The position numbers and the translations under genes were made by a program. Shown here piece by piece: positions 6,665 through 35,751 of a stretch of DNA of 64,000 nucleotides. Every line of letters starts with the position of its first letter. The stretch's first letter is position 1. Origin of the DNA: Candidatus Nomurabacteria bacterium (GTDB lineage: Bacteria; Patescibacteriota; Patescibacteriia; HK-STAS-PATE-3); assembly GCA_023898465.1 (NCBI GenBank), contig CP060223.1:192001-256000 (forward strand). Reading direction: 5' to 3'. Below the pieces are notes generated by a model. It saw only the letters and a program-made list of their open reading frames with translations. It was not told the origin of the DNA and did not search any database.

Positions 6665-7565
6665 GATGTTGGCCGCCCATTTCTCTTAATGCTTGAATAC
6701 GTTTTTCAATTGGAGGATGAGTAGAGAACACACCTGAGATGTTCTTAGCTACTGTACCGAAAGGATTCGCAATGTACAAATGCGCTGTAGCATTTGAGGC
6801 TCGTTGTAATTTCGATGACCGGGATATTTTTTGCAAAGCCGAAGCAAGTCCATCAGGATAGCGAGTAAGCAGCGCACCCGAAGCATCCGCCAGATATTCG
6901 CGACGACGGGATACAGCAAATTTAATCAATTGTGCAATGATTGGCGAGAGAATAATGAGCACCAATCCAAGTATGGCAAAAACTGCATTTCCAGAAGATC
7001 GATCGCGATTTCCCCGAAAGCTCCTAAGCATCGAGCCCCGGATGAACATGTCCGAGATAATCGCGACCATACCGACCAGCACCGTTACTAGGGTCATGAA
7101 TCGAATATCATAGTTTCCAATGTGGGAGAGTTCATGCGCCAGCACGCCTTCGAGCTCCTCATTTTCCAAATGCTCCAATAAGCCGCTTGTCACGGCCAGT
7201 GAAGCGTGTTTTGGGTCCCGACCAGTAGCAAAGGCGTTCATTGCCTGATCAGGGATAATGTAGATCTGAGGAAGGGGTAGTCCTGATGTGATGCAGAGAT
7301 TCTCAACCATCCGGTAAAGATAGGGGTTATCTTCCTTGCGAATCGGACGAGCGCCTGATGACCAGAGCGCGACTTTATCCCCAGCAAAGTAGCCGCCTAT
7401 ACTCATGGTAATAGCCAAAAATAGGGCAATACCAAGGAAGAAGACACCGGAATCAGACCACGCGTCGATGGAATAACCCAGAGCTACAATGAAAACGAGG
7501 AAGAATACCATCAGTAGCACTGATCGGCGCTTATTTGCGGCAATATGCGTGTAGGTTGTCGCCAT
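6657..7565 (-). CDS. htpX: Zinc metalloprotease HtpX (M48 family)
   Basis: 302 aa; TM helices plus HELSH zinc-binding motif (…LAHELSHIGNYD…), typical HtpX layout. Confidence 0.85.
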   Translation of the reverse strand: MATTYTHIAANKRRSVLLMVFFLVFIVALGYSIDAWSDSGVFFLGIALFLAITMSIGGYFAGDKVALWSSGARPIRKEDNPYLYRMVENLCITSGLPLPQIYIIPDQAMNAFATGRDPKHASLAVTSGLLEHLENEELEGVLAHELSHIGNYDIRFMTLVTVLVGMVAIISDMFIRGSMLRSFRGNRDRSSGNAVFAILGLVLIILSPIIAQLIKFAVSRRREYLADASGALLTRYPDGLASALQKISRSSKLQRASNATAHLYIANPFGTVAKNISGVFSTHPPIEKRIQALREMGGQHHG

Positions 7566-9881: not shown

Positions 9882-9882
9882 T

Positions 9883-16681: not shown

Positions 16682-17459
16682 GTATATGCAAATGCAAAAA
16701 CATCAATTCGTACTAATATTTGGAACTGTGCTTTTCTCTGCTCTCTTCCTGGTCAGTAGTGCCTTGCCTGAAAAAGGGTATGCGGCTACACCTTTTGGAG
16801 GAAACAGCAATAAGCGCTTGTCTATTTATAATGGTACTTTATTACTTGATGGTAGCGCACAATTGCGCTTAGGTAATGCCGGTCGCGATATTCAAGCAAG
16901 CGGGACTCTGTATCTGCGTCCTGATGGAAGCGCGCGTGGCTCCTTCTTCAGCGGTGTTACCAATGATGTTGGTCAGCGCCTTTCATTAACTGGCGGCATT
17001 AGTGGCAGTGATACTATCCAAGCCTCCTGGATCGGAACGAATGGAGTAGACGAAACTCGAGGCGCGGTCACTGGTTATTTCCACGGCGCTCCTGATAGTG
17101 CGGTTGGTGCCGCAATTTTTGGTGAAGTACAATCATGTGGTGTTGGGCAAACCTGTTACGCTGGTTACTTTGCCGGTGGCCAAAGCACAGGAGTGCAAAC
17201 GTATACGGCGACAAATCCAAACGGTGGAGCTACTCCTGCTTTGCAAGTATTAAATGCTGATGCAAATGGCGTAGCCGCTTCCTTTACCGGTAATGTGCAG
17301 ACAAATCGGCTTATTCTCGATAATAATACTCGTTCTGCGTGTACCTGGGAGTCGGTAAGCGGTGCAGAATTAGTCTGCCCTAGCGGAAAATTATTAGCCG
17401 GTGTCCGAGCGAGTAATACAGACCCAGTCATTTCTGATATTTATTGTTGTGAGCTGTAA
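16671..17459 (+). CDS. Secreted protein E: signal peptide + stand-alone copy of the conserved C-terminal 'CC' domain
   Basis: 262 aa; aligns over its whole mature length to C-termini of 11511 and 17461 genes (LGNAGRDI…, …SCGVGQTCYAGYF…, …CTW…VCPSG…IYCCEL). Confidence 0.6.
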   Translation: MDHKYMQMQKHQFVLIFGTVLFSALFLVSSALPEKGYAATPFGGNSNKRLSIYNGTLLLDGSAQLRLGNAGRDIQASGTLYLRPDGSARGSFFSGVTNDVGQRLSLTGGISGSDTIQASWIGTNGVDETRGAVTGYFHGAPDSAVGAAIFGEVQSCGVGQTCYAGYFAGGQSTGVQTYTATNPNGGATPALQVLNADANGVAASFTGNVQTNRLILDNNTRSACTWESVSGAELVCPSGKLLAGVRASNTDPVISDIYCCEL

Positions 17460-17460
17460 T

Positions 17461-19716
17461 ATGCAATTCCCGCGATTACATAAACTACACATTTTAAGCG
17501 CGATGTTCATCGCAGTGCTTGGTTTAGGTGTCGCAGTTGGTGCCTACACCTATTCAAACTGGACTCGACAGCAAAAAGGAGCCGAGAATACGAGCGCTAG
17601 TACTGATAATGGTCCAACCGCGAACGTGGTGCAGGGGACGGTGTCGGGTTGTGTAAGCGGTACCACGCAAACGGTTGATTGGACGATGGTACGAGATGGA
17701 GAGCTTATCGTTGTTGCACATTCTGAGTCACAGGAAAAACTTTGCATTTATGATTATAACAGCGTTGCCACTTCACCGATTCGACAATATGACATGACTC
17801 AATCCGAGCGAAGTCCGGTTGTGGTAGGGGATGTGCTCTATCGAGTCAAAAAAGGCTTAAGTCCAATTCAAGTAGAGGCACGTTCACTCATCGATGGATC
17901 AGTGCTGTGGACAAAAACGATTAGCTCAACTGCGGTGGGTAGTACTTACAATGTAATAACCGCAGCTAATGGCAATCTCTATATCGGAGCGAAATTTAAT
18001 GGATCCGAGCAGAGAGTGCTCGCACTGCAGCAGATTGATGGTCAGCTGTTATGGATGCGCACTATTGAGCCAAGCTTTGGCTTTTCGACCAGCGTTGAAC
18101 AGCTTGGCGCCTTAGCAGTTAGTAGTGATCAAGTGTTTATCCAATTTGTTGAAGGTTCGCTGTCTGATGGTCGGGTTGGTTATCGTGCGCTTAATGCGAG
18201 TACTGGAGCCGTGAACTGGACTGCCGGTCCTTATGGTTCCGGAGTGATTCGGACCAGAGCGTCACTAATTTACGCTGATAATGCTATTTATGCTGCGCCT
18301 GATGCATATATTTCTCTCAGTTCAGCTACTGGAAATCAAACCTGGAATCAAGCAATGGCAGCTACGAATGAGGCCTTAAGTATCGCCTATAGCAGCACTA
18401 AGGTGTACTACTCCGAGCGACGAAGCACGCAATACGCCTATCTCGCTCGAAGTGCTATAAACGGCGGTTTGTCATGGACAGCTGGAAATTATAACGGCTC
18501 TATTGGTGATGGTCCCCTTGTCGTAGTAAATAACAACTTCCTATATCACTGCGCAAATAGTACCTTGCGAGGCATTTCCACTGTGACTGGTTTTGTTACG
18601 TTCACGGGAGTTGCGCCCACCTTCTGCAATGCCGCTGCAGTATATAATGGAATATTGTATGTGAATGGTAATGCCGGCTCAGTAGACCAAGGTAAAGTGC
18701 GTTTAATCGCAAATACTTTGCCCGCAAGCGCTACAACAACAGTTGGTGTGCCGACATGTAGCATTGATAATGGTTCTAATTACGTTGATTGCGCGAACTT
18801 ACAATATGGCGCGATTGTGACACATGCTCGGACAACCTGTACGAGTACTGCAGGAGTAAAAGAGGTGCAGTTCACCTTAACAGGGCCCGCCGGTACACAA
18901 TACTCCTCAGTAAAAGCACAAACAGTCGTCGGTGCTACCTATACTACACATGCGCCGGGAACGCTCGTAGGTAGTGGGCAATGGACCCTGACGGCAAAGT
19001 GCGTGAATAGCATTAATGAGAGTACATCGAATCAAAAGATTTGGACTGTTGGATCTGCTCCAAGTGAAGGATCTCAGAAGCTTTCTATTTACGAAGGAAG
19101 CGCTCGCTTTACTGATGGTGAGACTATGGAAGCGGGTGCGCTCAGCGGAGATGCAAATATCGACTGGATTGGCTCTGATAGTATTTATGTTCGTCCAAAC
19201 ACTTCAAACGGTTCTTCATTCTTCCAAGGTGTTTCAGCACTTGATCGGCAAAGCCTCTATTTAAGCGGCGGCATTAATGCGAAACCAAGCTTGGAAGCAG
19301 TTGGTTTAGGACAAAATGGAGTACCGTACCTAGGCTCTGCTATTGCCTCAACTTTTGATGGGGCTAGTTTTTCCTCCGGTGGCGGTGCAATTTACGGAGG
19401 AGTGAGTAGTTGCGGGGCAGGGAAAACTTGCTACGCAGGATACTTCAATAACAGCTCCGAAACTGGCTATGGTATTCTCGTTACGAATAACTCCGCGTCG
19501 CAACCTACGCTTCGGGCGGAAAATTTAGCCGGTGGCACTGCAGCCAATTTCGTGGGCGTAGCTAAGGTGAGTGGCGATCTACAGGCAGATAATAATACGG
19601 TGAATAGTTGTACCTGGACACCAGTGAGTGCAAAAGAATGTCCGGCTGGGACTGTCGCCTCTGGTATGCGATTTAGCGGAGGAGTGGTGAGCGAATATAA
19701 TTGTTGTAGTCTCTAA
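17461..19716 (+). CDS. Large secreted surface protein, paralog F (PQQ-like beta-propeller + Ig-like modules + C-terminal CC domain)
   Basis: Start taken at ATG 17461 just after upstream stop (ORF track begins 17401); PQQ-like repeats (…DGSVLWTKTISS…, …DGQLLWMRTIEP…); Ig-like modules paralogous to 11511 gene (CSIDNGSNYVDC…); tail …EYNCCSL. Confidence 0.6.
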   Translation: MQFPRLHKLHILSAMFIAVLGLGVAVGAYTYSNWTRQQKGAENTSASTDNGPTANVVQGTVSGCVSGTTQTVDWTMVRDGELIVVAHSESQEKLCIYDYNSVATSPIRQYDMTQSERSPVVVGDVLYRVKKGLSPIQVEARSLIDGSVLWTKTISSTAVGSTYNVITAANGNLYIGAKFNGSEQRVLALQQIDGQLLWMRTIEPSFGFSTSVEQLGALAVSSDQVFIQFVEGSLSDGRVGYRALNASTGAVNWTAGPYGSGVIRTRASLIYADNAIYAAPDAYISLSSATGNQTWNQAMAATNEALSIAYSSTKVYYSERRSTQYAYLARSAINGGLSWTAGNYNGSIGDGPLVVVNNNFLYHCANSTLRGISTVTGFVTFTGVAPTFCNAAAVYNGILYVNGNAGSVDQGKVRLIANTLPASATTTVGVPTCSIDNGSNYVDCANLQYGAIVTHARTTCTSTAGVKEVQFTLTGPAGTQYSSVKAQTVVGATYTTHAPGTLVGSGQWTLTAKCVNSINESTSNQKIWTVGSAPSEGSQKLSIYEGSARFTDGETMEAGALSGDANIDWIGSDSIYVRPNTSNGSSFFQGVSALDRQSLYLSGGINAKPSLEAVGLGQNGVPYLGSAIASTFDGASFSSGGGAIYGGVSSCGAGKTCYAGYFNNSSETGYGILVTNNSASQPTLRAENLAGGTAANFVGVAKVSGDLQADNNTVNSCTWTPVSAKECPAGTVASGMRFSGGVVSEYNCCSL

Positions 19717-19717
19717 T

Positions 19718-22700
19718 ATGGCATTTGTACAACGACATTCACGAGCACTATTTATCAGTATATTCGCAACACTTGTTATAGTGGCTGCTGGACTTCTTAT
19801 TGCAAAGGTTAGTTTTGCTGGGCTCGAGTGGGAGCCGCAAAAACCTCCAGAAGTATATCAGAATAACAGTAGCATCGACTTCTATAAAGTTGATTTCCAA
19901 CAAAACCCCAGCGATAATAAATACTATGGTTGGGTGGTAGGTGAGGACTTAAGCGGTAAACAATCAAGCCTCCTTTACTTTAATGGCGCTTTTTGGAAAT
20001 CAATTACCGACGACGGTTTGGGTGCGGGGTCGACATCGGACCTCTTTGATGTTTCCGCTGTTTGGAATTCAGATATTGATCAGTATCTTGTTTGGGCAGT
20101 AGGGGAAAATCAAGCGCTCTGGTATTTAACTGACAGCGAGACTGTGTGTAATAGTGAAGCTATCCCATGTCCTGATAGTCCAGCTGGAGCTGTGACTTTA
20201 AATTCGGTTGAAGGTGCTTGGTATAGCGGAGATGATAAAGTTGCCTTTTTTGTAGGTGATAACGGGCACATTTATCATGCAGTGGCTGATGATTACCAAA
20301 GCGCATTCGCCTACACCGCAGCATTTGCTACGAGCGGGACCATCCGCGATATTGATTCTTTTGACGCTGCACATACTTGGGCAGTATCAAGTGATGGCAA
20401 GATATATTTTAATAGCGATTATCTGACAAACTCGTGGGTGCAACAAGCCTCTTTCCCAGGCATTGATTTTACAGGAGTGTCAGCGGCAGATGCCAGCCAC
20501 GTATGGGCTTCGGCAATTAACGGCACAAAAGGTCAAATTTATTTTTACGACGGGTCCACCTGGTCGCTCCAATTCACTACAGTGCTTGATATTCCGCTTC
20601 ATGATGTGAGTGCATTTTATAATCCTACTTTATCTATTTATAATGCCTTTGCGGTTGGTGATATTGATTCCTCTACAGGCAACGGAGGTGTTTATCAATA
20701 TAATGGTACAATTTGGGAACGGCAGGATTCAAATAATAATGGTGAAGTATTACGCGGCATTTCTGCTGCCAGCCTTATTGAGATACGAGCCGTTGGTGCG
20801 AACACCACACTCTTAACCAGCTCACCGGGAAATATATTTGGTTGGATTTGGCTAGGATCAAGCACAAGTAATGGAAGTGGCGATGCGCTGGGATGGGGAA
20901 GCGGAAGCTGCGCTAATCTTGATAGTTGTGAAAGTGCTGGCTTTACTTACGGCGTAAACATCCGCCGCAGTGGCACCAGTCAAGGTGCTTTGTCTGGTTA
21001 CTTTTGGCTAGGGAATGCTGATCCGGATGCTTATATTCCAAATGACTGTGACACCGATCCAGGCGTCGAAGCTTGTCAATCTAATTCGAGCATTAGCTGC
21101 ACTACTGATTTTGAATGTCGTTGCGCTATTAATTCAGCAGCTTGTTTTTCAACTGGTTGGATGTCGTTTAACAAAAAAGGCTCGGATGGTGTGACTGATG
21201 AGGCTGGCACACCTCCAGCTGCACCGTACAATGATGGTGCGCAAAACTATATTGCTCGATTTGATGCAAAGACGGGTAAGGTAACTGGCTGGGCTCGTTT
21301 ACTTTCCTTATACGAAGATCCAAGCACTGGTGGCTGGATTCGTTTGCGAGGGAATGCAGTTACTCCGAATGTAGGTGACTTACCAGTCCGAGACTGTAAA
21401 AATTGTGGCAAATTCTGCAGTCTCGACACTACGTATAAGTGTACAGTTGACGCTGACTGTAATGTAGACGCAGACGGTGATGGAACAGATGAAAACTACG
21501 GCCCGTGTAATGTGAGTGTTTGTAAGATTTGTAATGCTTTAAATGATGAAACAATCGTTTCTGCAAACATGTGCTCAAATACCGGCGGCACCTCATGTAC
21601 GCGACGTTGTGAGCTTAACAACAGTATTACCTGTACCGATGATGCAGATTGTATAGGATTTGGCTCATGTGTGAATGAGACTTTTTGTGATTCTTGTGTG
21701 ACCTATGACCAATATGGTGTAGCGATTGATGACGCAACTGGTAAGATTACCGGCTATGCTTGGAGTGGCGCGTCTACTACATATGGTCAACTTGGCTGGA
21801 TTGATTTTAATCGAGCAAACTATTATAGCCAGGCTTGGTTACAGACCCAATTTGGGAATATCTACGCTCAAGCTGATATCGGTAGCGTTGGTACGCCAGC
21901 TGCTCCAGAGGGTAAATGTAATGCGACATACGTGATTAGTGCAGCTGGTACCATCACTAACTTCTGTTCGCGCTACGAAGAAATCGATCCAACCGCCCCG
22001 CCAGGGGACTACACCACTCGCCCCTTCATCCAGCAAAACTACGATGAAATTTATTATCCAACCGAGGCAAATAACTATACGAACGTCCTAGGAAAATTGG
22101 ATCCAGATGCTCTGGTGCAGGATGTGGGCGCTGGAAAAAATAAATATGGCGATGAAATCATTACGGTAAACAGCGATGCTGATTTACTTGACCTTGGCTT
22201 GTGTGATGCTGACGGAGTAACGCTTGATGGCAAGGTATATCATGTGGTTGGAAATCTCAGTATCGGTGTCTGTAATCCTGGTAGCGGTGATGTTACTGAA
22301 TTGATTATTAAGAATTCTTCACTCGCCAGTGGGTCAGGGACAATAGTGGTTGATGGTAATCTCACCATTGATATGAATATAAGCTACGAACAAAGTTCAA
22401 TCTCTAATATTAGAGATTTGGCCTCCCTGGGTGTGATGGTGAAGAAAAATATGATAGTGACTGGTGATGTAGATTCAATCGTCGGCTCCTATATCGTCTT
22501 TGGAACCGATGAGACAGAAGCTAATAAATTTAGTGGAATTAAGATTGAAAACTCCTTAATCGAACGCTCCTTTAGTGCGCAAGGTCTCATGATCGCCCGA
22601 GGCTTCAAATTCGAGCGCACATATCGTGGCACCTTAATCGATCCACAACCAGCTGAGCAGGTGGTATACGATGGACGGGTGATTGCAAATACGCCGCCAG

Positions 22701-22756
22701 GATTCCGTGATTTTGCGAAAGTCTTACCAGTTATTCGAGAAACCATACCTTTTTAA
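19718..22756 (+). CDS. Large membrane-anchored/secreted surface protein G (BNR/Ycf48-like beta-propeller, Cys-rich repeats, beta-helix-like C-terminus)
   Basis: 1012 aa; N-terminal TM/signal (…AKVSFA|GLEWEPQ); repeats of type YxxWAVGxxG; Cys-dense region with repeated DxxTGK[VI]TG[WY]A units; no catalytic motif recognised. Confidence 0.55.
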   Translation: MAFVQRHSRALFISIFATLVIVAAGLLIAKVSFAGLEWEPQKPPEVYQNNSSIDFYKVDFQQNPSDNKYYGWVVGEDLSGKQSSLLYFNGAFWKSITDDGLGAGSTSDLFDVSAVWNSDIDQYLVWAVGENQALWYLTDSETVCNSEAIPCPDSPAGAVTLNSVEGAWYSGDDKVAFFVGDNGHIYHAVADDYQSAFAYTAAFATSGTIRDIDSFDAAHTWAVSSDGKIYFNSDYLTNSWVQQASFPGIDFTGVSAADASHVWASAINGTKGQIYFYDGSTWSLQFTTVLDIPLHDVSAFYNPTLSIYNAFAVGDIDSSTGNGGVYQYNGTIWERQDSNNNGEVLRGISAASLIEIRAVGANTTLLTSSPGNIFGWIWLGSSTSNGSGDALGWGSGSCANLDSCESAGFTYGVNIRRSGTSQGALSGYFWLGNADPDAYIPNDCDTDPGVEACQSNSSISCTTDFECRCAINSAACFSTGWMSFNKKGSDGVTDEAGTPPAAPYNDGAQNYIARFDAKTGKVTGWARLLSLYEDPSTGGWIRLRGNAVTPNVGDLPVRDCKNCGKFCSLDTTYKCTVDADCNVDADGDGTDENYGPCNVSVCKICNALNDETIVSANMCSNTGGTSCTRRCELNNSITCTDDADCIGFGSCVNETFCDSCVTYDQYGVAIDDATGKITGYAWSGASTTYGQLGWIDFNRANYYSQAWLQTQFGNIYAQADIGSVGTPAAPEGKCNATYVISAAGTITNFCSRYEEIDPTAPPGDYTTRPFIQQNYDEIYYPTEANNYTNVLGKLDPDALVQDVGAGKNKYGDEIITVNSDADLLDLGLCDADGVTLDGKVYHVVGNLSIGVCNPGSGDVTELIIKNSSLASGSGTIVVDGNLTIDMNISYEQSSISNIRDLASLGVMVKKNMIVTGDVDSIVGSYIVFGTDETEANKFSGIKIENSLIERSFSAQGLMIARGFKFERTYRGTLIDPQPAEQVVYDGRVIANTPPGFRDFAKVLPVIRETIPF

Positions 22757-25912: not shown

Positions 25913-26206
25913 ATGGCACTGGTACAGAAAAGCAATAAAAAGAGCGTCACTATTTTACTCAGCGTCCTGGTCGGTGTCACGGTGATTGGTTTACTTGTGT
26001 ATTTCCTGGTTATCGCTCCACCGGATGTTGATCCAAATGTGAATACCTCCAATAATATTGTGCAGAGAGATTTGCCAATCTACACTACCTTTGGCGAAGA
26101 CTTGTTTGATGATCCGCGTTTCCGCGCCCTCGTGCCCTATGGTGATCTGCCGGTTGATCTAGGTGACGTGGGGAGGACTAACCCATTTGAGAAGCCATCC
26201 CCATGA
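25913..26206 (+). CDS. Small membrane protein of unknown function in pilus operon
   Basis: 97 aa; single TM helix (VTILLSVLVGVTVIGLLVYFLVIA); no motif recognised. Confidence 0.4.
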   Translation: MALVQKSNKKSVTILLSVLVGVTVIGLLVYFLVIAPPDVDPNVNTSNNIVQRDLPIYTTFGEDLFDDPRFRALVPYGDLPVDLGDVGRTNPFEKPSP

Positions 26207-27984
26207 GCGCTGCCCGACGTAGCAGCTCGGTTCAGGACGATTCCGTCTTAGGCATGCCTAGGGCGATTATTAATGACTTGGAAGAACGGGGATTAATCAG
26301 CGAGGAAACTCTAGCTCAATATGTAGAGCAGGCTAAAGCAAAGAAGTTTACCCTCGAACGGATTCTCTTAGATACTCGAGCAGTGAGGGAAGAGGATATC
26401 ACCAAAGCAAAGGGCAAGCTTTTTAACGTGCCCTATGTTGAGCTATTTGGAAAAATAGTACGCGCTGAGGTGCTGAATCTAATACCACAGGAGTTAGCGC
26501 AAAACTACAGCATGGTAGCCTTTAGCCGAGATGCTGATGAGCTATCTGTGGCAATGGTGAATCCATCTGACTTTAAGGCGCTAGAAGCAATTGAATTCAT
26601 TGCTCGTAAAAATCGCCTCAAATTAAAGTATTTCATTGCCTCGGAAACAGGCGTGAAGCACATATTGCAGCAATACGAGAGTCTTTCCGCTGAAGTTGAA
26701 GAAGCGCTCAAGGATACAGAGTCAGAAGGCGACGCAGAGGTAAAGTTAAACATTGCCGAGCCGGGCATGGAGGAGGTAATCCGCCAAGCTCCGGTTTCAA
26801 AGATGGTTTCGGTTATTATGCGACACGCAGTAGAGGGTAAAGCTTCTGACGTGCACATCGAGCCAGTCGGCAATGAATCTCGCATTCGCTATCGTATTGA
26901 TGGTGTGCTGCATACCTCGCTTGTGTTGCCAAAGCATGTCCATGCCTCAATCGTTGCGCGCATTAAGGTGCTGTCTAATTTGAAGATTGATGAAACGCGT
27001 GTGCCGCAAGATGGTCGCTTCCGCATGAATATTGACGGGAGAGATGTTGACTATCGTGTTTCTACACTGCCGCTCGTCAACCAAGAAAAAGTCGTGATGC
27101 GTATTCTCGACACTAGTGGCGCCATGACTGATTTGCAGGATTTGGGTTTCGACGGGCGCAATTACGAAATTATTCAGGAGAACATTGATAAATCCCACGG
27201 AATGATTTTAGTCACTGGTCCGACCGGTTCTGGTAAGTCAACCACCCTCTATGCCATTATGAGTCGCTTGAATGAGGAATCTGTGAATATTGTGACGCTG
27301 GAAGATCCGGTTGAATATTATATGAAAGGAGTAAACCAGTCACAAATTAATCCTGACGTTGGACTTACCTTTGCAGCAGGTTTGCGCTCCATCTTACGTC
27401 AGGACCCTGACATCGTCATGGTTGGAGAAATTCGGGATACTGAAACTGCAGATTTGGGTGTGCACGCCTCATTGACTGGTCACGTGGTACTCTCAACGCT
27501 TCACACCAACGACGCTTTTGGAGCAATACCGCGTTTTATTGACATGAAGATCGAACCATTCTTACTTGCTTCATCGCTCAATGTTGTCATTGCCCAACGC
27601 CTGGTCCGTCGTATTTGTCAGCATTGTACGACCACGATGGAGATACCGGCCGCCTTGCAAAAAGAGGTACAAGAGGGCTTAAAAGAATTAAAGCCTGAGC
27701 AGTTACCAAAAGGTATTAGTCTAAATTCGCCTAAGTTTTATCGAGGTAAAGGTTGTGTACGCTGTGAAAATACCGGCTATAAAGGCCGTGTTGCTATTGC
27801 TGAGGTGCTAGATATGACTGAAAATTTGAAGAAGGTGATCACTGGTGAACAGGCGAGAATTTTAGAGAACATTCACGAAGAATTTAATAGACAGGGCCTA
27901 TTAACCATGAAGCAGGATGGCTTACTGAAGGCTCTGCGCGGCTTAACCACCATTGAAGAGGTGTGGGACGCTACCCGAGAATAA
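26203..27984 (+). CDS. pilB: Type IV pilus assembly ATPase PilB (GspE family) with N-terminal T2SSE_N domain
   Basis: 593 aa; Walker A GPTGSGKSTT, Asp box DPDIVMVGEIRDTETA, His box TGHVVLSTLHTNDA, C-terminal tetracysteine CQHC…CVRC. Confidence 0.9.
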   Translation: MSAARRSSSVQDDSVLGMPRAIINDLEERGLISEETLAQYVEQAKAKKFTLERILLDTRAVREEDITKAKGKLFNVPYVELFGKIVRAEVLNLIPQELAQNYSMVAFSRDADELSVAMVNPSDFKALEAIEFIARKNRLKLKYFIASETGVKHILQQYESLSAEVEEALKDTESEGDAEVKLNIAEPGMEEVIRQAPVSKMVSVIMRHAVEGKASDVHIEPVGNESRIRYRIDGVLHTSLVLPKHVHASIVARIKVLSNLKIDETRVPQDGRFRMNIDGRDVDYRVSTLPLVNQEKVVMRILDTSGAMTDLQDLGFDGRNYEIIQENIDKSHGMILVTGPTGSGKSTTLYAIMSRLNEESVNIVTLEDPVEYYMKGVNQSQINPDVGLTFAAGLRSILRQDPDIVMVGEIRDTETADLGVHASLTGHVVLSTLHTNDAFGAIPRFIDMKIEPFLLASSLNVVIAQRLVRRICQHCTTTMEIPAALQKEVQEGLKELKPEQLPKGISLNSPKFYRGKGCVRCENTGYKGRVAIAEVLDMTENLKKVITGEQARILENIHEEFNRQGLLTMKQDGLLKALRGLTTIEEVWDATRE

Positions 27985-28008: not shown

Positions 28009-28420
28009 TATGACAAAGGCAACAAGTAGTGCAAAAGAGCAGTCAAAAAAGAAGAATCCCCAAGTGCTTATTGTGGAGGATGATACCTTCCTGTCTGGAA
28101 TGTACGTCACCAAACTTGAGCTAGAGGGGATTGATGTAGAGTTGGCCAGTGATGGTCAGCAGGCTATTAATGTCGTGCAGAAGAGGAGACCAGATGTCAT
28201 CCTGCTCGATGTGGTGATGCCTAAGATGTCGGGATTCGATGTCTTGACTTGGTTAAAAAAGACCAAAGAGACAAAAGATATCCCGGTTATCTTATTAACC
28301 AATTTGGGAGAGAAAGAAGACGTACAAAAAGGCTTGAAGCTTGGCGCTGTCGATTATCTCATCAAAGCACATTTCTTGCCATCAGAAGTGGTAGAAAAGA
28401 TTAAGCGTATTGTTCGCTAG
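28009..28420 (+). CDS. Stand-alone response-regulator receiver (CheY-like REC) protein
   Basis: REC signature (…VLIVEDD…, …DVILLDVVMPKMSGFDV…, …PVILLTNLG…); start chosen at ATG 28009 (ORF track starts 27953 inside pilB); paralog of 42883 gene. Confidence 0.75.
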
Positions 28421-28421
28421 C

Positions 28422-29498
28422 ATGCCCTCATCCGACACTATAGCTATTCAGAAAATTTTGGCCTCGGCGGCTGATTATGGAGCCTCTGATATTCACATTG
28501 TGCCAGGTAATCCACCGACCCTGCGCGTGGACGGTAAATTAGTGCCTTTAGAGAATGAAGTAGTGGTCACGCCGGACCTGATGACCGCTTTAGAAGAACT
28601 TTTACTTACCCCTGAGCAACGTGAGCGTTTCCATGCTGACAAGGAGCTTGTCACAGCAACCAGCTTAGAGAATCGCCAACGTTTTAAAGCCAGCTTTTTT
28701 TACCAAAAGGGTTTACCAGCCAGTTCGCTCCGTTTAATTGCCAGCCGACCAAAGTCTGTCCGAGATTTAGGCTTACCGGATAATATTGAGGACCTCGCCC
28801 GTTTGTCATCTGGACTCGTGGTTATTTCAGGTCCCTACGGATCAGGACGGTCTTCAACGGTGTCCGCCTTACTCCAAACAATTAATCAGCAGCGCGCCGC
28901 TCATGTGGTTACGATTGAGTGGCCGATTGAGCATCTGTTTGTCAACGAGAAGAGTATGATAGAGCAGCGTGAAGTAGGTCGTGACACACAATCGTTTACC
29001 AAGGCGATTGAAACGGCAACTCGAGAAGATGTGGATGTGGTGATGGTGTCTGAGATGGAGGATCCAAATGTGGTGCAGTCAGTGTTGCAAATTGCCTCGA
29101 CTGATCGTTTAGTCGTGAGTATGTTATTAGCCGATTCGGTGCCGCAAACGGTAGAAAAAATCCTTGACGCATATCCGGCTGAGGAACAGGAGCAGGCTCG
29201 ACGTATTTTTGCCGAACATCTGGGTGGTATCGTGTGTCAGCGTCTCTTACCGCGTGTGGGCGGCGGGCGCATTGTGGTAGCAGAAATCCTGCTGCCCACT
29301 GATCCGGTGCGCGCCCTTATTCGCGATGGGCAGATTGGTCAGCTCAAGACTATGCTACAAAGCTCCCAAGAGGAGGGATTAGTTTCTTTTGATCGTTATT
29401 TAGCCGCTTTAGTACGTAATGGTGAAATATTAGTTGATGATGCATTAGCCAATGCAAATGATCGGGCCGAGCTCTCAGCCGCCCTACGAGGACGATAA
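28422..29498 (+). CDS. pilT: PilT-like retraction ATPase homolog with degenerate catalytic motifs (predicted pseudo-ATPase)
   Basis: Aligns along full length to canonical PilT but Walker A is GPYGSGRSST (Lys to Arg), EDPIE box is EWPIE, Asp-box Arg replaced (VSEMED), His box TGHLVFGTLHT replaced by TDRLVVSMLLA. Confidence 0.8.
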   Translation: MPSSDTIAIQKILASAADYGASDIHIVPGNPPTLRVDGKLVPLENEVVVTPDLMTALEELLLTPEQRERFHADKELVTATSLENRQRFKASFFYQKGLPASSLRLIASRPKSVRDLGLPDNIEDLARLSSGLVVISGPYGSGRSSTVSALLQTINQQRAAHVVTIEWPIEHLFVNEKSMIEQREVGRDTQSFTKAIETATREDVDVVMVSEMEDPNVVQSVLQIASTDRLVVSMLLADSVPQTVEKILDAYPAEEQEQARRIFAEHLGGIVCQRLLPRVGGGRIVVAEILLPTDPVRALIRDGQIGQLKTMLQSSQEEGLVSFDRYLAALVRNGEILVDDALANANDRAELSAALRGR

Positions 29499-29504
29499 TT
29501 ACTT

Positions 29505-30713
29505 ATGCCAAATTTTGAATATACTGCACGAGATAGTCAGGGAAATACCAGTACAGGTATTGTTGAAGCGCCAACTGAGAGCATAGCGCAGGATGTTTTG
29601 CGTGAACGCGGTTTGATAGTGACCGGTATTAGCGAGCGTCAGCGCAAAGCGCTTTTTCAAACCTCGCTGAACATATTTAATCGCGTGCCTCGTCGTGATG
29701 TCACTATTTTTTCACGGCAGCTGGCAGTGATGATTTCGGCCACGGTACCGATTGTGCAGGCTTTGCGTATCCTCGTGAAGCAGACAGAAAACGTAGCTTT
29801 TAAGATTATTATCTCAGAGGTTGCTGATGAGGTTGACGGTGGATCAAAGCTTTCCGCCACTTTAGGGAAGTATCCTCATGTGTTCAATGATTTCTTTGTG
29901 CACATGATTCGATCTGGTGAAACCACGGGTAAGTTGGATGAAACGCTCAACTATTTAGCTGATCAGCAGGAAAAAGACTACGATTTGATCTCTAAGATCA
30001 AAGGCTCGATGACCTATCCGGTCTTTATTCTGGGTGCTTTGGTGGCTGTCGGTATCCTTATGATGATTTTTGTGATTCCACAGCTGACCGATATCCTGAC
30101 AGCTGGTGGGCAAGAGCTGCCGATTATGACGCGAGCTTTAATCGCTACCTCGGCATTTTTGCAGACAAAGTGGTGGGTGTTGCTTATTGTGATTGCGCTT
30201 TTGTACGCGGCATATCGCTTTGTGGAGCGGTCTGAGCAAGGTCAAGACGTGATTGATCGCTTGAAGCTGCACTTCCCAATTTTTGGACAAATTTTTCAGC
30301 GTATTTACCTTGTCCGTTTCGCGCGCAGCTTATCAACCTTAATCTCCAGCGGCGTGCCAATTACTCGCTCACTCGAGATTGTGGCTGATGTGATTGATAA
30401 CCGTCTCTATCGTAAGTTAACCAAAGAGACTATTGAAGCAATTGAGGGAGGTAAATCTATCTCCTATGTCTTTGCGCAAAATAAAGATATCCCTCCTATG
30501 TTGACGCAGATGATGAGCATTGGTGAATCAACTGGTAAGCTTGATTTCATTTTAGAAAAGCTGGCAAATTTCTACAGTCGTGAGCTAGAAAACAACGTAG
30601 CAAACCTGGTTAGCCTGATCGAACCTTTGATTCTGGTGGTTATGGGTGTGGCAGTTGCCTTCCTCGTTATCGCTATTCTCTTGCCGATGTATAATTTGTC
30701 ATCAGCCATTTAG
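29505..30713 (+). CDS. pilC: Type IV pilus inner-membrane platform protein PilC (GspF family)
   Basis: 402 aa; two GspF repeats, three TM segments; conserved …QLAVMISATVPIVQAL… and …RFARSLSTLISSGVPI…. Confidence 0.85.
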   Translation: MPNFEYTARDSQGNTSTGIVEAPTESIAQDVLRERGLIVTGISERQRKALFQTSLNIFNRVPRRDVTIFSRQLAVMISATVPIVQALRILVKQTENVAFKIIISEVADEVDGGSKLSATLGKYPHVFNDFFVHMIRSGETTGKLDETLNYLADQQEKDYDLISKIKGSMTYPVFILGALVAVGILMMIFVIPQLTDILTAGGQELPIMTRALIATSAFLQTKWWVLLIVIALLYAAYRFVERSEQGQDVIDRLKLHFPIFGQIFQRIYLVRFARSLSTLISSGVPITRSLEIVADVIDNRLYRKLTKETIEAIEGGKSISYVFAQNKDIPPMLTQMMSIGESTGKLDFILEKLANFYSRELENNVANLVSLIEPLILVVMGVAVAFLVIAILLPMYNLSSAI

Positions 30714-30892
30714 CTAAAGTTAGCCGAAAAAGTAGGGGATTTGTTGTCGAATGTGGAAAAGTAAGAACACTTGTTCGGTATTTGCAAAAATGGTACACTA
30801 CAACTGTACAAATTGCGTACACTAAAAGCCTCGGCATATTTCACGCGTGAAGTATGTACAACGGCAAAATGAAAGGGGGTGAGACAGAAAGA

Positions 30893-31459
30893 ATGAAAAA
30901 AGGATTCACACTTATTGAGCTCTTGGTCGTGATCGCGATCATCGGTATTTTGTCTGCAATTGGGCTCGTCTCACTAAACGGTGCACGTGAAAAGGCCCGT
31001 GACGCCCAAGCCAAGTCTGACCTTGGTCAGATGCGCACTGCGTTGACCTTGTTTGCTGATGATAACGGTGGAAGCTTTGTTGGAGTGCAGGTAGCAGGCG
31101 CAAGTAATACGCCTGATTGTTCTGGTGACACAAACGACGCCGGATCGACCGCAGCTGGTAATGATTAAGTGTGGGATAGCAACGACGGTTACCGATTATC
31201 TCTCAACCTATCTAAATTCACCACGAGCTTGGTTACTGGCGCGGACGCGTGCGAAGGTCGTTATGGTTATGTGGCAAATGAATTCAGCTGCTACCGTAAA
31301 CGACGCTGATGATTATGTGTTGTTCTATAGACCGAAACAGGTGATGGACAAAACTACTACAAGCTTAGCGCTGACGGGCAGTCGGTTGATTATTCAGATA
31401 ATGAAACAGGTGTTCCTACCTGTCCAAACACGGGTGCGGCTTGTACGCTAAATCCGTAA
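30893..31459 (+). pseudogene. Type IV pilin paralog 1 (promoter-proximal copy), disrupted by in-frame stops and frameshifts
   Basis: MKKG|FTLIELLVV… N-terminus is identical to paralog 3; ORF stops after 91 aa (TAA 31166-31168). Pilin-like sequence then continues in the same frame (…GADACEGRYGYVANEFS), shifts frame (…DDYVLFYRPKQV) and returns (…GDGQNYYKLSADGQSVDYSDNETGVPTCPNTGAACTLNP*), with further in-frame TGA/TGA/TAG at 31307-31330. Confidence 0.55.
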
Positions 31460-31470
31460 GGTTGATAAAC

Positions 31471-31503
31471 AAAAAAGGGGTGCTAGTTGACCCCTTTTTT
31501 GTT
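31471..31503 (+). terminator. Rho-independent terminator after pilin 1
   Basis: AAAAAAGGGG-tgctagttga-CCCCTTTTTTT hairpin plus T-run. Confidence 0.6.
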
Positions 31504-31552
31504 TATTGTGCTATACTTACCGCATTGAAGCTTAAGTTAAAGGGGGTAGTTA

Positions 31553-32074
31553 ATGAAAAAAGGATTCACACTTATTGAGCTCCTAGTTGTTATCGCGATT
31601 ATTGGAGTACTTTCTGCTATTGGGCTCGTCTCACTAAACGGTGCACGTGAAAAGGCCCGTGACGCCCAAGCCAAGTCTGACCTTGGTCAGATGCGTACAG
31701 CATTAACTTTATTTGCTGACGATAGCGGTGGATATTATCCAGATGTACAAAGTGATAGTCCTGGTGTGCCAGATGAGAGCGCTCCCAATTTAACTGAGGG
31801 CGGTATTTGGGATGGCACCGGTGGGTCAATAATTCCAAGTTATCTATCAGCAGAACTTGAATCCGGCTCAAGTACTCCTTACGGTTATGTATCGAATGGA
31901 CTAGATGCTACTCCAAATGTATCTAGCGATTATGGGCTCTATTACTTGTTAGAATCTGGCGATGGAGCGCGCTACTACGTGCTTACTGCCAATGGAACAG
32001 TGTATGATTATGATGCTAATATTGGAGCGCCACCGCTTTGTATCGATGAAAGTCTGCCTTGTGAAGTAAGCTAA
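31553..32074 (+). CDS. Type IV major pilin paralog 2
   Basis: 173 aa; prepilin leader MKKG|FTLIELLVVIAIIG; conserved N-terminal 70 aa shared with paralogs 1 and 3; C-terminal Cys pair (…PPLCIDESLPCEVS); own extended -10 promoter TGcTATACT upstream. Confidence 0.8.
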   Translation: MKKGFTLIELLVVIAIIGVLSAIGLVSLNGAREKARDAQAKSDLGQMRTALTLFADDSGGYYPDVQSDSPGVPDESAPNLTEGGIWDGTGGSIIPSYLSAELESGSSTPYGYVSNGLDATPNVSSDYGLYYLLESGDGARYYVLTANGTVYDYDANIGAPPLCIDESLPCEVS

Positions 32075-32110
32075 TTACAAAATGGAAATGAAAGGGGGTG
32101 AGACAGAAAG

Positions 32111-32666
32111 AATGAAAAAAGGATTCACACTTATTGAGCTCTTGGTCGTGATCGCGATCATCGGTATTTTGTCTGCAATTGGGCTCGTCTCACTAAACGG
32201 TGCACGTGAAAAGGCCCGTGACGCCCAAGCCAAGTCTGACCTTGGTCAGATGCGAACTGCTTTGACCTTGTTTGCTGATGATAATGGTGGAGAGTATCCG
32301 GGAGAAGGTACAAACGGACAGCCAGATGCTAGCGGCACGGGATCTGGCGGAGGGCTTGGTGTATGGGCTGCCAGTGGGGCAATAATAGGCCCGTATCTTA
32401 GTTCTGAACTAGAGTCACCTTCGAGCACTAGCTATAGTTATCTCTCAAACAGCGGAGCTGCACCTGACACTACAGGAACGGATTTCGTTTTGTATTATCA
32501 GTTAGAGTCAGGCGCAGGTGATCATATCTACTCACTTTTAGCTGATGGTACTGTTCGAGACTACGATGACGGGGACACTAACTTACCTTGTTGTCAGAAT
32601 GATGCGCTTTGCCACTATAATGACCCTGACCCGTTGCCGACAGATGCTTCTTGCGATGGAAGCTAG
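32111..32666 (+). CDS. Type IV major pilin paralog 3
   Basis: Start at MKKGFTL (ORF track begins 32082); 5' ~230 bp incl. RBS identical to paralog 1; divergent C-terminal domain with Cys-rich end (…LPCCQNDALCHYNDP…ASCDGS). Confidence 0.8.
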
Positions 32667-32693
32667 TTAGTCAAACACTATGTGTAAGAATCA

Positions 32694-32720
32694 AAAAAGA
32701 GCAGAAATGCTCTTTTTTGA
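32694..32720 (+). terminator. Rho-independent terminator after pilin 3
   Basis: AAAAAAGAGCA-gaaa-TGCTCTTTTTTG hairpin plus T-run. Confidence 0.55.
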
Positions 32721-32813
32721 ATTTGGTGTAGCAGGTAGTTCCGGGAGTTTAAGTTATGTAATGCAAGGTGGTTGCCTTGGTGATTTTCGCTATTTCTTGT
32801 ATAATAATACTAC

Positions 32814-33404
32814 ATGTCGAATTCGCTTTATCACGGTTTGCTTAGTCTGATCTTGCTTGCTCCCTACATTGCGACTGTCCAATGGCGGAAAGCGATGAGT
32901 CGTAAGATTTTTATTTGGTCAGTCAGCGGTATCATTGTTCTGATGTGTATACAAATGAGTATTCAGAGTGTCCAACTTTGGAATGAATACTCTAACGATC
33001 CGGTTGCCGCCTATTTACTACCACCTCATTCGAATGTCGTTTATTCGCATATTCTGAGATTAGGACAGCCGATACTTGTAGCAGTTATTACCGCACTAGT
33101 TACCTTTTCTGTTCTTTACTTTGCAAAAAAATACTTCCGACTCGGACAGTATGATGCTGAGGATATTCGCTGGTTGAGTTTGTCAGCTCTCTTGAGTTCT
33201 TGGCCAGGCGTCCTTATTACTTTTGTAAGCATATTTCTCATTGCTGTGTTGGCTCAGATAGTACGGGTGCTCATGGCAATGCGTAGTTCAGCTGAGCCAC
33301 CTCGACTTGTCCTCACCCCCTTTGTCGCCCCTGTCACCATTTTTATCCTCTGGTTTCTCCCAGATATTCTCCATGTTACCGGACTTGAAAAAATCCGATT
33401 CTAG
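32814..33404 (+). CDS. Hypothetical polytopic membrane protein within pilin cluster
   Basis: 196 aa; 4-5 predicted TM helices; overlaps start of downstream pilin by ~30 nt. Confidence 0.45.
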   Translation: MSNSLYHGLLSLILLAPYIATVQWRKAMSRKIFIWSVSGIIVLMCIQMSIQSVQLWNEYSNDPVAAYLLPPHSNVVYSHILRLGQPILVAVITALVTFSVLYFAKKYFRLGQYDAEDIRWLSLSALLSSWPGVLITFVSIFLIAVLAQIVRVLMAMRSSAEPPRLVLTPFVAPVTIFILWFLPDILHVTGLEKIRF

Positions 33405-33897
33405 AAAAGGATTTACCCTAATCGAATTATTAGTAGTGATTGCAATTATCGGCATACTTTCGGGTATTGGTATTACACAATTTAATAAGTCGCGCGAAAA
33501 AGCACGTGATGCACAACGTAAATCAGACCTGGCGAATATTAGATCCGCACTATTGCTTTATTATGATGATTACGATTTTCTTTATCCAACAACCGTGACT
33601 GTAGGTGCACCGGACGCTTCCTTAGACGGCGTAGGTGTATTTGATGCGGATGAGGGCAATAATCCAATAGTACCCGAATATCTTGCGTCTGTGATATTAC
33701 CAAAAACTGACGACACCAATCATGAGTATTGGTATGACGCGACTGATGATGGGAGTGCGTATCTTCTGTATACTCATTTAGAGGGAGCTGATACAGACTG
33801 GTATTGGCTTGATTCTAACGGCAAAAACGGTGTTGAGTTAAATGCCAATACCCATACGGCAGATAATTGCAATGCAGGAACTAGCTGTACGTGGTAA
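33373..33897 (+). CDS. Type IV pilin paralog 4
   Basis: Prepilin leader …SRKG|FTLIELLVVIAIIGILSGIG…; start chosen at internal ATG 33373 (ORF track 33307). Confidence 0.7.
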   Translation: MLPDLKKSDSRKGFTLIELLVVIAIIGILSGIGITQFNKSREKARDAQRKSDLANIRSALLLYYDDYDFLYPTTVTVGAPDASLDGVGVFDADEGNNPIVPEYLASVILPKTDDTNHEYWYDATDDGSAYLLYTHLEGADTDWYWLDSNGKNGVELNANTHTADNCNAGTSCTW

Positions 33898-33906
33898 AAT
33901 ACATAT

Positions 33907-34326
33907 ATGGAAAACGCTAAGCAAAAAGGATTAGGACTAATTGAGCTCATTATCATTATCGGCCTTTTTGGCTTATTGATCGTGCTTGGCGTGATAATGT
34001 TAGGGAACGAGCGGGCTCGGACGCGGGATAGCCAGCGTTTGGCTGATATGACACGGGTGCAGGCAGCTTTTCAGCTGCTCTATTACACACAGGCAAGCTA
34101 CGCCGAGGCAGCGGATGGCTGTGATGAGGTGGGGACTGCGGTGGCTGCGTGTGGATTAGATCGCTACCTGAACGGAATTGGTACTTTGCAAGATCCGGGG
34201 TCTTTCTCTTACCGCATTGCCAAAGTGCCGGATGAGCACGGCTACGCGGTTGAGTTTACCTTAGAGCGCGGATATGGCACCCTAGCCCCGGGGTCGCATT
34301 TCTTGACTGAGCAGGGGATTCAATAA
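33907..34326 (+). CDS. Pseudopilin / minor pilin (prepilin-type N-terminus)
   Basis: 139 aa; …QKG|LGLIELIIIIGLFGLLIVLGV… with Glu at +5. Confidence 0.6.
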   Translation: MENAKQKGLGLIELIIIIGLFGLLIVLGVIMLGNERARTRDSQRLADMTRVQAAFQLLYYTQASYAEAADGCDEVGTAVAACGLDRYLNGIGTLQDPGSFSYRIAKVPDEHGYAVEFTLERGYGTLAPGSHFLTEQGIQ

Positions 34327-34334
34327 CGATTCAG

Positions 34335-35099
34335 ATGGGGGATATGGACCAAAGCATCGCACTCATTGGCGCTATTGCGGTAGCTGTCTTTGGTTTGATT
34401 ATTGGCAGCTTTTTAAATGCAGCGCTCTGGCGGATGCGGGTACGGCGCTCTTTAGTAAGCGATCGTTCGCGATGTCCACATTGCAAGCACGTGCTTGGTC
34501 CAGCTGAACTCATCCCAGTGTTTAGTTTTTTCTGGCAGCGTGGTCGCTGTCGGCACTGCCGCCGCAAAATTTCCTGGTGGTATCCCGGCATAGAGCTGGC
34601 AACAGCGGCAGTGTTTTGCGTGAACTGGTTTCGTTTTGGTTTATCAACTGAGTTTTTTTACGTCACTGTTATTTCCGCTTTCCTCATTGTCATTTTCGTC
34701 TATGATGCGCGCTACAGTTTAATTCTCGATCGAGTTTCTTTGCCAGGCGCGGCATTGGCCTTCATCGGCAGTTTGTTACTTGGTGTGCCTTTTTGGGACG
34801 TGCTGCTCGGCGCGCTGATTGGTGGAGGATTCTTTTTCCTGCAGTATGTCATTTCCCGTGGTCGCTGGATTGGCGGAGGTGATATGCGTCTCGGGCTGCT
34901 GCTTGGTGCCTTCTTAGCCTGGCCGGAAATTGTCTTTGCACTGTGCCTCGCCTATATATTGGGATCGTTATATGGCATTGGTCTGGTTTTGAGTAAGAAG
35001 AAGTCTTGGCAAAGCGCTATTCCCTTCGGCACCTTTTTGAGTTTAGCAGCATACATTTTTTATTTAATGAGCGATCGTGTCCTTCCATACCTCACCTAA
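34335..35099 (+). CDS. pilD: Prepilin peptidase PilD (A24 family) with N-terminal zinc-binding Cys pairs
   Basis: 254 aa; …IGSFLNAALWRM…CPHCKHVL…CRHCRRKI…; multiple TM helices; conserved Asp-containing loops (…GGGDMRLGLLLGAFL…). Confidence 0.85.
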   Translation: MGDMDQSIALIGAIAVAVFGLIIGSFLNAALWRMRVRRSLVSDRSRCPHCKHVLGPAELIPVFSFFWQRGRCRHCRRKISWWYPGIELATAAVFCVNWFRFGLSTEFFYVTVISAFLIVIFVYDARYSLILDRVSLPGAALAFIGSLLLGVPFWDVLLGALIGGGFFFLQYVISRGRWIGGGDMRLGLLLGAFLAWPEIVFALCLAYILGSLYGIGLVLSKKKSWQSAIPFGTFLSLAAYIFYLMSDRVLPYLT

Positions 35100-35751
35100 A
35101 AAATCGCAGCACGGTTTCACAATGATTGAGCTAGTTGTCTCAATCGCAATTTTTGGCATACTCGCCGGGATTCTTGGTTGGAATTTTAGCCGCTTCCGAG
35201 AAAATGATGATTTACGTCTAGCCGCTGAACAGCTGATGACTGATCTTCGTACTGCGCAAAATACTGCCATGACCGGTCAGGTGATTGATGATCCAGGACC
35301 AGGAGATCCAGCCGTGCCAATTGGCGGCTATGGCATTCATTTTAATCTCAACATAGGCAACAACGAATATTGGATGTTTGCGGATCGAGAGAGTTACAGT
35401 GGGACAACTTGTGTTCCTGTACGCAACGAGCGCTTTGATCAATTAGTAGCCGACCCTCCGAGCACGTGTATGACTGATGGGGTGAATGATGATTTAGATG
35501 CAGCGCCTAATCCGGTACAATTACCCGGCGATGTGATTATTGAAGCCTTGCGAGTAGATGGAACACAAAGCATTACCGACGTGGCCTTTTTGCCTCCTAA
35601 ACCACTCCCTTATGTAGCTTACGGCGATCTGACAAATGCCGCCGTAGCTGGGAAAACTATTGAGATTGACCTCCGTCATACCGTGACAAACCAGCTCCGA
35701 AGGGTTACTGTAGTAGGAGCATCAGGTCAAATAAGTGTCAGCACACCATAA
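35077..35751 (+). CDS. Minor pilin, FimT/GspH-like
   Basis: 224 aa; prepilin N-terminus …QHG|FTMIELVVSIAIFGILAGI…. Confidence 0.65.
   Translation: MSFHTSPKKSQHGFTMIELVVSIAIFGILAGILGWNFSRFRENDDLRLAAEQLMTDLRTAQNTAMTGQVIDDPGPGDPAVPIGGYGIHFNLNIGNNEYWMFADRESYSGTTCVPVRNERFDQLVADPPSTCMTDGVNDDLDAAPNPVQLPGDVIIEALRVDGTQSITDVAFLPPKPLPYVAYGDLTNAAVAGKTIEIDLRHTVTNQLRRVTVVGASGQISVSTP

Follow-up and report, generated by a model that had tools for sequence, protein, structure and literature searches.

The 64-kb stretch of DNA analysed here (the window) contains three type IV pilin genes in tandem, all on the + strand and directly 3' of pilC (Table 1). Downstream of this array lie the gene of a conserved membrane protein, two more pilin-like genes, the gene of the prepilin peptidase PilD and further minor pilins with an N-methyl motif. 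The assembly machinery, with T2SSE present twice and with T2SSF and Peptidase_A24, completes a type IV pilus operon. The deposited products of pilC and of the second and third pilin gene (USN53718.1, USN53719.1 and USN53720.1) are all encoded on one 1,082,586-bp contig of a metagenome-assembled genome (MAG), which is labelled Candidatus Nomurabacteria at NCBI.

An initial annotation of this DNA had described three tandem pilin paralogs with near-identical 5' ends and divergent 3' ends. This description holds: a module of 206 nucleotides (nt) is present three times, and no DNA homology among the copies was detectable beyond position 31072 (blastn, word size 7). The proposed start positions of copies 1 and 2 (30893 and 31553) are right, whereas the ATG of copy 3 is at 32112 and not at 32111. 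All three copies code for a class III signal peptide (MKKG/FTLIE) with a short basic leader up to Gly and with Phe+1 and Glu+5. The N-methylation motif is recognized by Pfam N_methyl (E ~3e-8) and scores above the cut-off of TIGR02532. The signal peptide is followed by the architecture of a pilin, i.e. a long hydrophobic alpha-1 helix and a globular beta-sheet head (the 'lollipop' fold). A C-terminal Cys pair is found in copies 1, 2 and 3, and C161 and C167 are invariant across 45 homologs; the pair is a candidate for a D-region disulfide. The genes of the array appear to be major-pilin (pilA-type) genes, a role suggested by their position after pilC, where relatives keep a single pilin.

An upstream in-frame ATG (MKGGETER...) was rejected as the true start, because it overlaps the Shine-Dalgarno sequence AAAGGGGGTGA and is absent in copy 2, and because USN53719.1 and USN53720.1 begin with MKKGF. 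Such leader ATGs overlap the Shine-Dalgarno sequence at 30869-30892 and 32082-32111 and in the homologs P0005, P0009 and P0121. Because of this overlap, some gene callers lengthen pilins of this type by 8-20 residues (MKGGETER...), and their signal peptides look too long in databases.

Table 1. Features of the pilin array and of the adjoining pilus genes (window coordinates).
Feature	Position	Strand	Remarks
PilB-like ATPase	26203-27984		
Small open reading frame (ORF)	27953-28420		gene at the same position in relative L083 codes for a response regulator
PilT-like ATPase	28410-29498		
pilC (T2SSF platform protein)	29505..30713	+	Pfam T2SSF, E = 2.4e-62; USN53718.1
Short hairpin GCTAA-AG-TTAGC overlapping the pilC stop	30713..30724	+	same palindrome after pilC in relatives L001 (9207-9225) and L081 (~2320-2335)
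Copy-1 5' module	30867..31072	+	Shine-Dalgarno leader AAATGAAAGGGGGTGAGACAGAAAGA and codons 1-60 (prepilin leader, alpha-1 helix); repeat family D1
Pilin copy 1, pseudogene	30893..31459	+	5' part intact for 91 codons, head domain disrupted
77-nt tract, identical in all three copies	30959..31035, 31619-31695, 32178-32254	+	codon mosaic, permutation
In-frame TAA (lesion 1)	31166..31168	+	
First out-of-frame stretch	31190..31222 (approximate)	+	motif TVTDYLSTYLNS readable in the +1 frame only; two compensating indels
Second out-of-frame stretch	31284..31330 (approximate)	+	NDADDYVLFY in the +1 frame only; start frame has TGA TGA, TAG
Terminator hairpin after copy 1	31465..31506	+	17-nt perfect arms, T-rich 3' arm; inverted repeat I1; -26.6 kcal/mol, z = -7.1
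Extended -10-like TGCTATACT	31509..31517	+	putative promoter of copies 2 and 3; 35 nt before the copy-2 ATG
Copy-2 5' module	31527-31732	+	
Pilin copy 2, intact, 173 amino acids (aa)	31553..32074	+	ORF; Pfam N_methyl and TIGR02532; USN53719.1, P0002
Copy-3 5' module	32086..32291	+	leader and codons 1-60 as in copy 1
Pilin copy 3, intact, 184 aa	32112..32666	+	USN53720.1
Intrinsic terminator after copy 3	32691..32720	+	13-bp stem, then T run
Prepilin peptidase PilD (Peptidase_A24)	34335-35099		

Concerted evolution of the 5' module

Each pilin gene consists of a conserved 5' module (Shine-Dalgarno leader, MKKG/F signal, alpha-1 helix, ~57 codons) and a fast-evolving head. Whether compared within or between genomes, nearly all pairs of head domains share 37-47% protein identity; for the heads of the array itself the range is 37-46%. 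The three direct copies of the module are spaced by 660 and 559 nt; compared to copy 1, the module of copy 3 is 99% and that of copy 2 is 81% identical. For copy 2, the value rises to 89% when only the first 171 coding nt are considered. The statement of the initial annotation that copies 1 and 3 are identical is correct for a tract of 169 nt (30867-31035), which is base-perfect and includes 26 nt of the leader with the ribosome-binding site before the ATG. Over the full 206 nt it is not: the identity is 99%, with three mismatches (31036, 31042 and 31066).

The comparison of copy 2 with copies 1 and 3 yielded a pronounced mosaic. Codons 1-10 are identical, codons 11-22 differ at nearly every synonymous site, codons 23-47 contain no difference at all, and codons 48-53 differ at six of six. 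For copies 1 and 2, the run of 25 consecutive identical third-codon positions has a permutation p value of 1.6e-4. Relatives that possess the same 57-residue N-terminal peptide deviate from the window at 15-17 synonymous positions inside the 77-nt tract. The identity of this tract within the window is therefore due to recent gene conversion and not to constraint on the nucleotides. The same pattern is seen in the related locus L081, whose two pilin genes A and B form a mosaic of their own; their differences cluster at nt 87-111. In the 5' coding DNA, identity amounts to 99% between copies 1 and 3 of the window, to 96% between L081 A and B, and to only ~80% between the window and L081. These comparisons establish that the constant module is under concerted evolution via intragenomic gene conversion. 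The 5' modules are homogenised at the DNA level, that of the dead copy included, whereas the exposed head is free to diverge.

A possible trace of recombination between the modules was found in L084, a 700-nt contig from ENA (ERZ27309238 k141_753943) that is the source of P0121, a member of copy 2's 90% cluster. The contig is a base-perfect mosaic. Its positions 1-273 correspond to window 31982-32254, i.e. to the tail of copy 2, the spacer, and the leader and 5' codons of copy 3, and its positions 197-700 follow the copy-2 register 31619-32122. In this way, L084 joins the 5' end of copy 3 to the head of copy 2 with a crossover inside the 77-nt tract. The ends of the contig overlap by exactly 141 nt, which yields a closed cycle of 559 bp. 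The junction may represent a tandem duplication, an excised circle or an artefact of the assembly graph, and is suggestive only. L084 stems from a low-coverage assembly, and the other ENA contigs of the same organism are only ~756-763 nt long; under such conditions, branches that are lost or clipped at the 77-nt repeat could make the same cycle.

The disrupted copy 1 and the transcription layout

In its start frame, copy 1 can be read for 91 codons up to a TAA, and three-frame translation revealed recognizable pilin sequence beyond this stop. A profile of nine intact homologs matches the start frame from end to end (position 1 to 169), and the two most conserved motifs of the head (...DYLS... 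and ...DYVLFY...) are readable in the +1 frame only. The lesions are one nonsense codon and four indels, which form two compensating frameshift pairs (~31190/31222 and ~31284/31330). Three further in-frame stops all lie within the second out-of-frame stretch; they are consequences of the frameshift and not separate lesions. The final 43 codons, including the Cys pair, are restored to the original frame and end at the stop 31457-31459. These results agree with the initial annotation in that copy 1 is multiply disrupted, that a TAA lies at 31166 and that pilin-like sequence with a C-terminal Cys pair extends to 31459. Its count of at least two frameshifts plus three more stops has to be revised to four frameshifts, since the stops are present but secondary to the second shift.

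Several observations bear on the origin of the lesions. No other visibly split gene was found in the window, which is 94.6% coding and contains intact ORFs of up to 1169 aa. Slippage at homopolymers was rejected as the cause of the frameshifts, because no homopolymer of at least 4 bases is present in 31160-31340; 21 homopolymers of at least 7 bases occur elsewhere in the window, where no gene is visibly broken. In the deposit, the numbering from PilC to H6760_00955 comprises five locus tags and four protein accessions, and no protein accession lies between pilC and copy 2. One gene at the array thus seems to be deposited without a protein. Among 5.8 billion proteins, no intact near-identical counterpart of the repaired copy 1 was found; the best matches share 52-56% identity with it, which is also the level of its own paralogs. 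Exact look-ups of copy 2, of copy 3 (both starts) and of the truncated copy-1 ORF in public assemblies gave no match. Likewise, no match resulted from two scans of a metagenome collection, for which a 3' pattern specific to copy 1 and the shared block were used, respectively; the species is absent there. The genome is present in run SRR12358675. A Logan contig with PilB ends before the pilin cassette. As judged from these data, copy 1 is most plausibly a multiply disrupted pseudogene, and sequencing error is an unlikely source of its lesions. The pristine 5' end of this gene with five lesions can be explained by conversion from the live copies. Copy 1 would then be a dying paralog, the 5' end of which has been overwritten repeatedly.

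The terminators after copies 1 and 3 are unrelated to each other, and no hairpin folds in the 37 nt between the stop of copy 2 and the ATG of copy 3. As the initial annotation had noted, copy 2 is located behind a strong terminator and an extended -10 motif, TGCTATACT. This motif was missed by the -35/-10 scan, and its function as a promoter is deduced from its context. At the equivalent site, relatives have TGCTATAAT (L001 and gene A of L081) or TATAAT (gene B of L081), and the same AAAGGGGGTGA leader comes after each of them. In copy 3, the ancestral leader is present but a promoter of its own is not. Because terminators flank copies 2 and 3, none lies between them and TGCTATACT precedes copy 2, the two genes look like an expressed unit. 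They would be transcribed as one bicistronic message from a promoter of the extended -10 type between two strong terminators and would supply the pilus subunits. The region upstream of copy 1 lacks the TGCTATAAT motif of the relatives. The assignment of a promoter to copy 1 could not be verified: the -35/-10 scan found no consensus promoter in the spacer between pilC and copy 1, which contains TGGTACACT only.

The palindrome GCTAA..TTAGC at the pilC stop is kept across species, unlike the remainder of the spacer, and may act as a hairpin in processing or attenuation.

Related loci and neighbouring genes

For comparison, 80 PilC-anchored loci of relatives were used. The nearest PilC relatives share 78-80% aa identity with the protein of the window and are mostly labelled Kerfeldbacteria or Patescibacteria. 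The label Candidatus Nomurabacteria of the MAG may be imprecise: where the closest PilC relatives have a lineage name, it is in most cases Kerfeldbacteria. Among the 80 loci, it is common for PilC to be followed by an array of two to four pilins. The 5' DNA identity within these arrays is usually 55-84%; it reaches 91% in L047 and 96% in L081, compared to 99% for copies 1 and 3 of the window. In L081 and L082, PilC is followed by two intact pilins, both of which have a -10 element of their own and the same leader, and then by the membrane protein and pilin 4. In L002, a small unrelated gene separates PilC from a single pilin, after which the membrane protein, pilin 4 and PilD follow. On this comparison, the array of the window appears to be an expansion of a common theme, distinguished by a very recent homogenisation and by one decayed member. 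Strict orthology of copy 1 to the first pilin of L081, with which it shares a four-Cys pattern, is unproven, since the heads are ~40% identical in every pairing.

Some of the related loci are irregular themselves. The contigs L001, L012, L015 and L020 end within a few hundred bases 3' of pilC, and L001 ends at pilin codon 57, i.e. at the boundary between the conserved and the variable part. These breaks fit repeats or strain variation at the pilin locus that may disrupt short-read assembly. In L008, an 823-kb contig of a Kerfeldbacteria MAG, the sole pilin after pilC (9379-9950) contains one frameshift after ...YYDD, and its head is wholly in the +1 frame; this is either another pseudogene or an assembly indel. 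The truncation of the pilin in L053 is only apparent, as it results from an N-masked gap. In L083, a Y1-type (IS200/IS605-like) transposase gene (6701-7156) follows a single pilin, and the membrane protein, PilD and the minor pilins of the cluster are replaced by unrelated genes. The Logan contig L087 is of no use for the structure of the array, because it belongs to an 83%-identical relative and its first 334 nt are unrelated. Its match covers window 32776-35156. Where a pilin would be expected, the first 270 nt code for the C-terminus of an unrelated protein; either the contig is chimeric or the locus is rearranged in that relative.

The membrane protein between the array and the next pilin (32814-33404) is a multi-pass protein of 196 aa without a Pfam or NCBIfam match. 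The 3' end of its gene overlaps the start of the next pilin, and L002, L081/L082 and L087 conserve it at the same position. The protein could be an accessory component of type IV pili that has gone unrecognised. Upstream of the pilus genes, at 9883-22756, the window contains large ORFs of 542, 1169, 558, 262, 771 and 1012 aa, for which Pfam gives hardly any match. Those at 9883-11511 and 15005-16681 possess a domain resembling fn3 or the N-terminal domain of purple acid phosphatases at the same position. These ORFs probably code for paralogous surface proteins.

Interpretation of the array

The observations are best explained by a tandem major-pilin family that evolves by duplication, divergence of the heads, gene conversion restricted to the 5' module, and loss. 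Copies 2 and 3 would be working genes and copy 1 a decaying one, in the genome of a Kerfeldbacteria-like member of the Patescibacteria with a lineage-specific array of three pilins. We regard this explanation, including the lineage assignment, as probable. The diversity of the locus would result from duplication, divergence, unequal crossing-over and decay, and a programmed switch would not be involved; the pressure behind it is probably recognition of host surfaces or phage. The direct repeats of 169 and 77 nt would cause occasional deletions or duplications of 1219 or 559 bp in the population. This would be an ordinary mode of pilin-family evolution and neither a demonstrated switching device nor a new mechanism.

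Five points weigh against this explanation. The orthology of copy 1 to the first pilin of L081, which is intact, is uncertain. The search with the nonsense +1-frame ORF spanning the lesions gave no match, and the lesions were thereby neither confirmed nor refuted. Two frameshift pairs that each restore the frame are slightly odd for random decay. The promoter use and the co-transcription of copies 2 and 3 are deduced from motifs only. Finally, L084, the sole trace of a structural variant, hints at recombination beyond a slow turnover. The array might be an actively recombining diversification locus, in which the 5' modules keep undergoing crossing-over and conversion with each other and thereby yield hybrid, duplicated and deleted units in natural populations. 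We consider this possible but doubtful. If true, L084 would be a direct footprint of active recombination (a 559-bp tandem duplication or an excised circle), and the episymbiont could vary the host-binding surface of its pilus by a route mechanistically unlike that of Neisseria pilE/pilS.

The initial annotation had gone further and had proposed antigenic or phase variation, in which gene conversion or deletion at the 5' repeats swaps the expressed variable domain. As a programmed system, this would mean that recombination of the 5' repeats changes the expressed head, with copy 1 as an 'off' or reservoir state. That the repeats are substrates of recombination is borne out by the clear conversion footprints in the 5' modules, and with 169 nt of perfect direct repeat in copies 1 and 3 and 77 nt in all copies, RecA-type recombination would have ample substrate. 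Moreover, L084, which stems from another assembly of the same strain, has exactly the junction predicted for crossing-over in the 77-nt tract, and several contigs of relatives break at or just after the 5' module of the pilin. A swapping of the expressed head, however, is unsupported. The homology is one-sided and restricted to the 5' part. It therefore allows only deletion or duplication (1219 bp between copies 1 and 3, 559 bp between copies 2 and 3) and no reversible exchange of cassettes. Furthermore, the copy adjoining pilC is the dead one and lacks the upstream TGCTATAAT of the relatives, and the assemblies behind L084 give only contigs of ~700-760 nt for this organism, so that the cycle may reflect a lost branch. 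The search for further head-domain cassettes in the 64 kb (blastn, tblastn) found none, which also counts against programmed variation. No inverted repeats flank the cassettes; the window contains only the terminator palindromes and three short inverted repeats elsewhere. The whole window is free of guanine-quadruplex (G4) motifs (G3+N1-7 x4) on both strands, and no recombinase domain was found in the scanned neighbours of the array. Taken together, a programmed switch is unlikely.

Two other alternatives concern the state of copy 1. It might in reality be intact, its lesions being consensus or assembly errors of the MAG, such as a mixed-strain consensus over a hypervariable stretch. This possibility draws on the origin of the sequence from a single 1.08-Mb MAG contig, on the fact that every indel belongs to a compensating, frame-restoring pair, on the lack of an independent assembly match for the lesion stretch, and on the lone frameshift in the pilin of the MAG L008. 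It is nevertheless quite unlikely: no second gene of the window is visibly broken, one of the lesions is a nonsense codon of the substitution type, the lesion interval has no homopolymer of at least 4 bases while the long ones elsewhere are not associated with any visibly broken gene, and the variable stretch is unique sequence to which reads map unambiguously. The second alternative takes copy 1 as alive and coding for a functional short pilin of 91 aa (87 residues in the mature peptide), i.e. an alpha-1 helix with a tail of 34 residues, like truncated pilins such as PilA-N of Geobacter. The 5' ORF, the ribosome-binding site and the signal peptide are indeed kept perfectly up to the TAA, and a strong terminator follows copy 1. 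Yet the preservation of the 5' end is already accounted for by gene conversion, the remnant beyond the TAA is still a frameshifted pilin head, which indicates decay and not a designed truncation, and no similar truncated protein is among the best 120 matches listed for the repaired copy 1. A functional short pilin would thus be very improbable.

The comparison with known systems is in line with a family evolving by duplication, divergence and conversion. In the Q/I switch of Moraxella bovis and M. lacunata, oppositely oriented segments with flanking inverted repeats are exchanged by an adjacent recombinase, the Piv invertase. The likeness to the window lies in alternative C-terminal parts of a pilin that are combined with one constant N-terminal segment. 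In contrast, the copies of the window are all direct, and they have neither flanking inverted repeats nor a recombinase in the scanned neighbourhood. With Neisseria pilE/pilS, the array shares a type IV major pilin, a conserved N-terminal part, a hypervariable head and non-reciprocal transfer between paralogs. As is well established (see also PMC4023411), the silent copies of Neisseria lack a promoter and the 5' coding end and feed one expression locus via blocks of homology on both sides, and the initiation of variation depends on a G4 structure. In the window, every copy has a leader and a 5' end, 3' homology and a G4 are missing, no repertoire of cassettes was found in the 64 kb, and conversion homogenises the constant and not the variable part. 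To judge from these features, the array appears to lack the defining properties of both programmed systems; it shares the modular architecture of the pilin with them and with the tandem major pilins of S. sanguinis or Thermus and, with Neisseria, conversion.

Tandem major pilins can also be co-expressed: PilE1 and PilE2 of Streptococcus sanguinis form a heteropolymeric pilus, and PilA4 and PilA5 of Thermus thermophilus form alternative filaments. Copies 2 and 3 of the window are intact, 37 nt apart and bounded by terminators, and may form one transcription unit of the kind described for S. sanguinis. To our knowledge, neither a third, decayed copy nor a base-perfect 5' homogenisation has been described for these two systems. 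In bacteria, gene conversion is known to drive the concerted evolution of duplicated genes such as tufA/tufB and the rRNA operons. There, as in the window, paralogs are closer within a genome than orthologs are between genomes, and mosaic tracts of perfect identity occur. Unlike in these genes, conversion in the window is limited to one module, stops sharply at the diversifying domain and maintains the 5' end of a dead gene. Nanosynbacter lyticus TM7x (PilA1/PilA2) belongs to the same phylum and suggests a role for the pilins and a selective pressure on the head; it differs in having two separate type IV pilus systems at different loci. In PMC11623550, a tandem array, a pseudogene or recombination is not mentioned for TM7x (zero term counts).

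The locus is a clean natural example of concerted evolution that is restricted to a module. In practical terms, repeats of this kind may explain why contigs of relatives end at the 5' end of the pilin. In cultivated Patescibacteria, the major pilins of type IV pili, which adopt a lollipop fold, are responsible for host binding and motility (PMC11623550). Because type IV pili mediate these functions, the diversification of pilins in Patescibacteria bears on host range and on the escape from phage across a very large uncultivated group.

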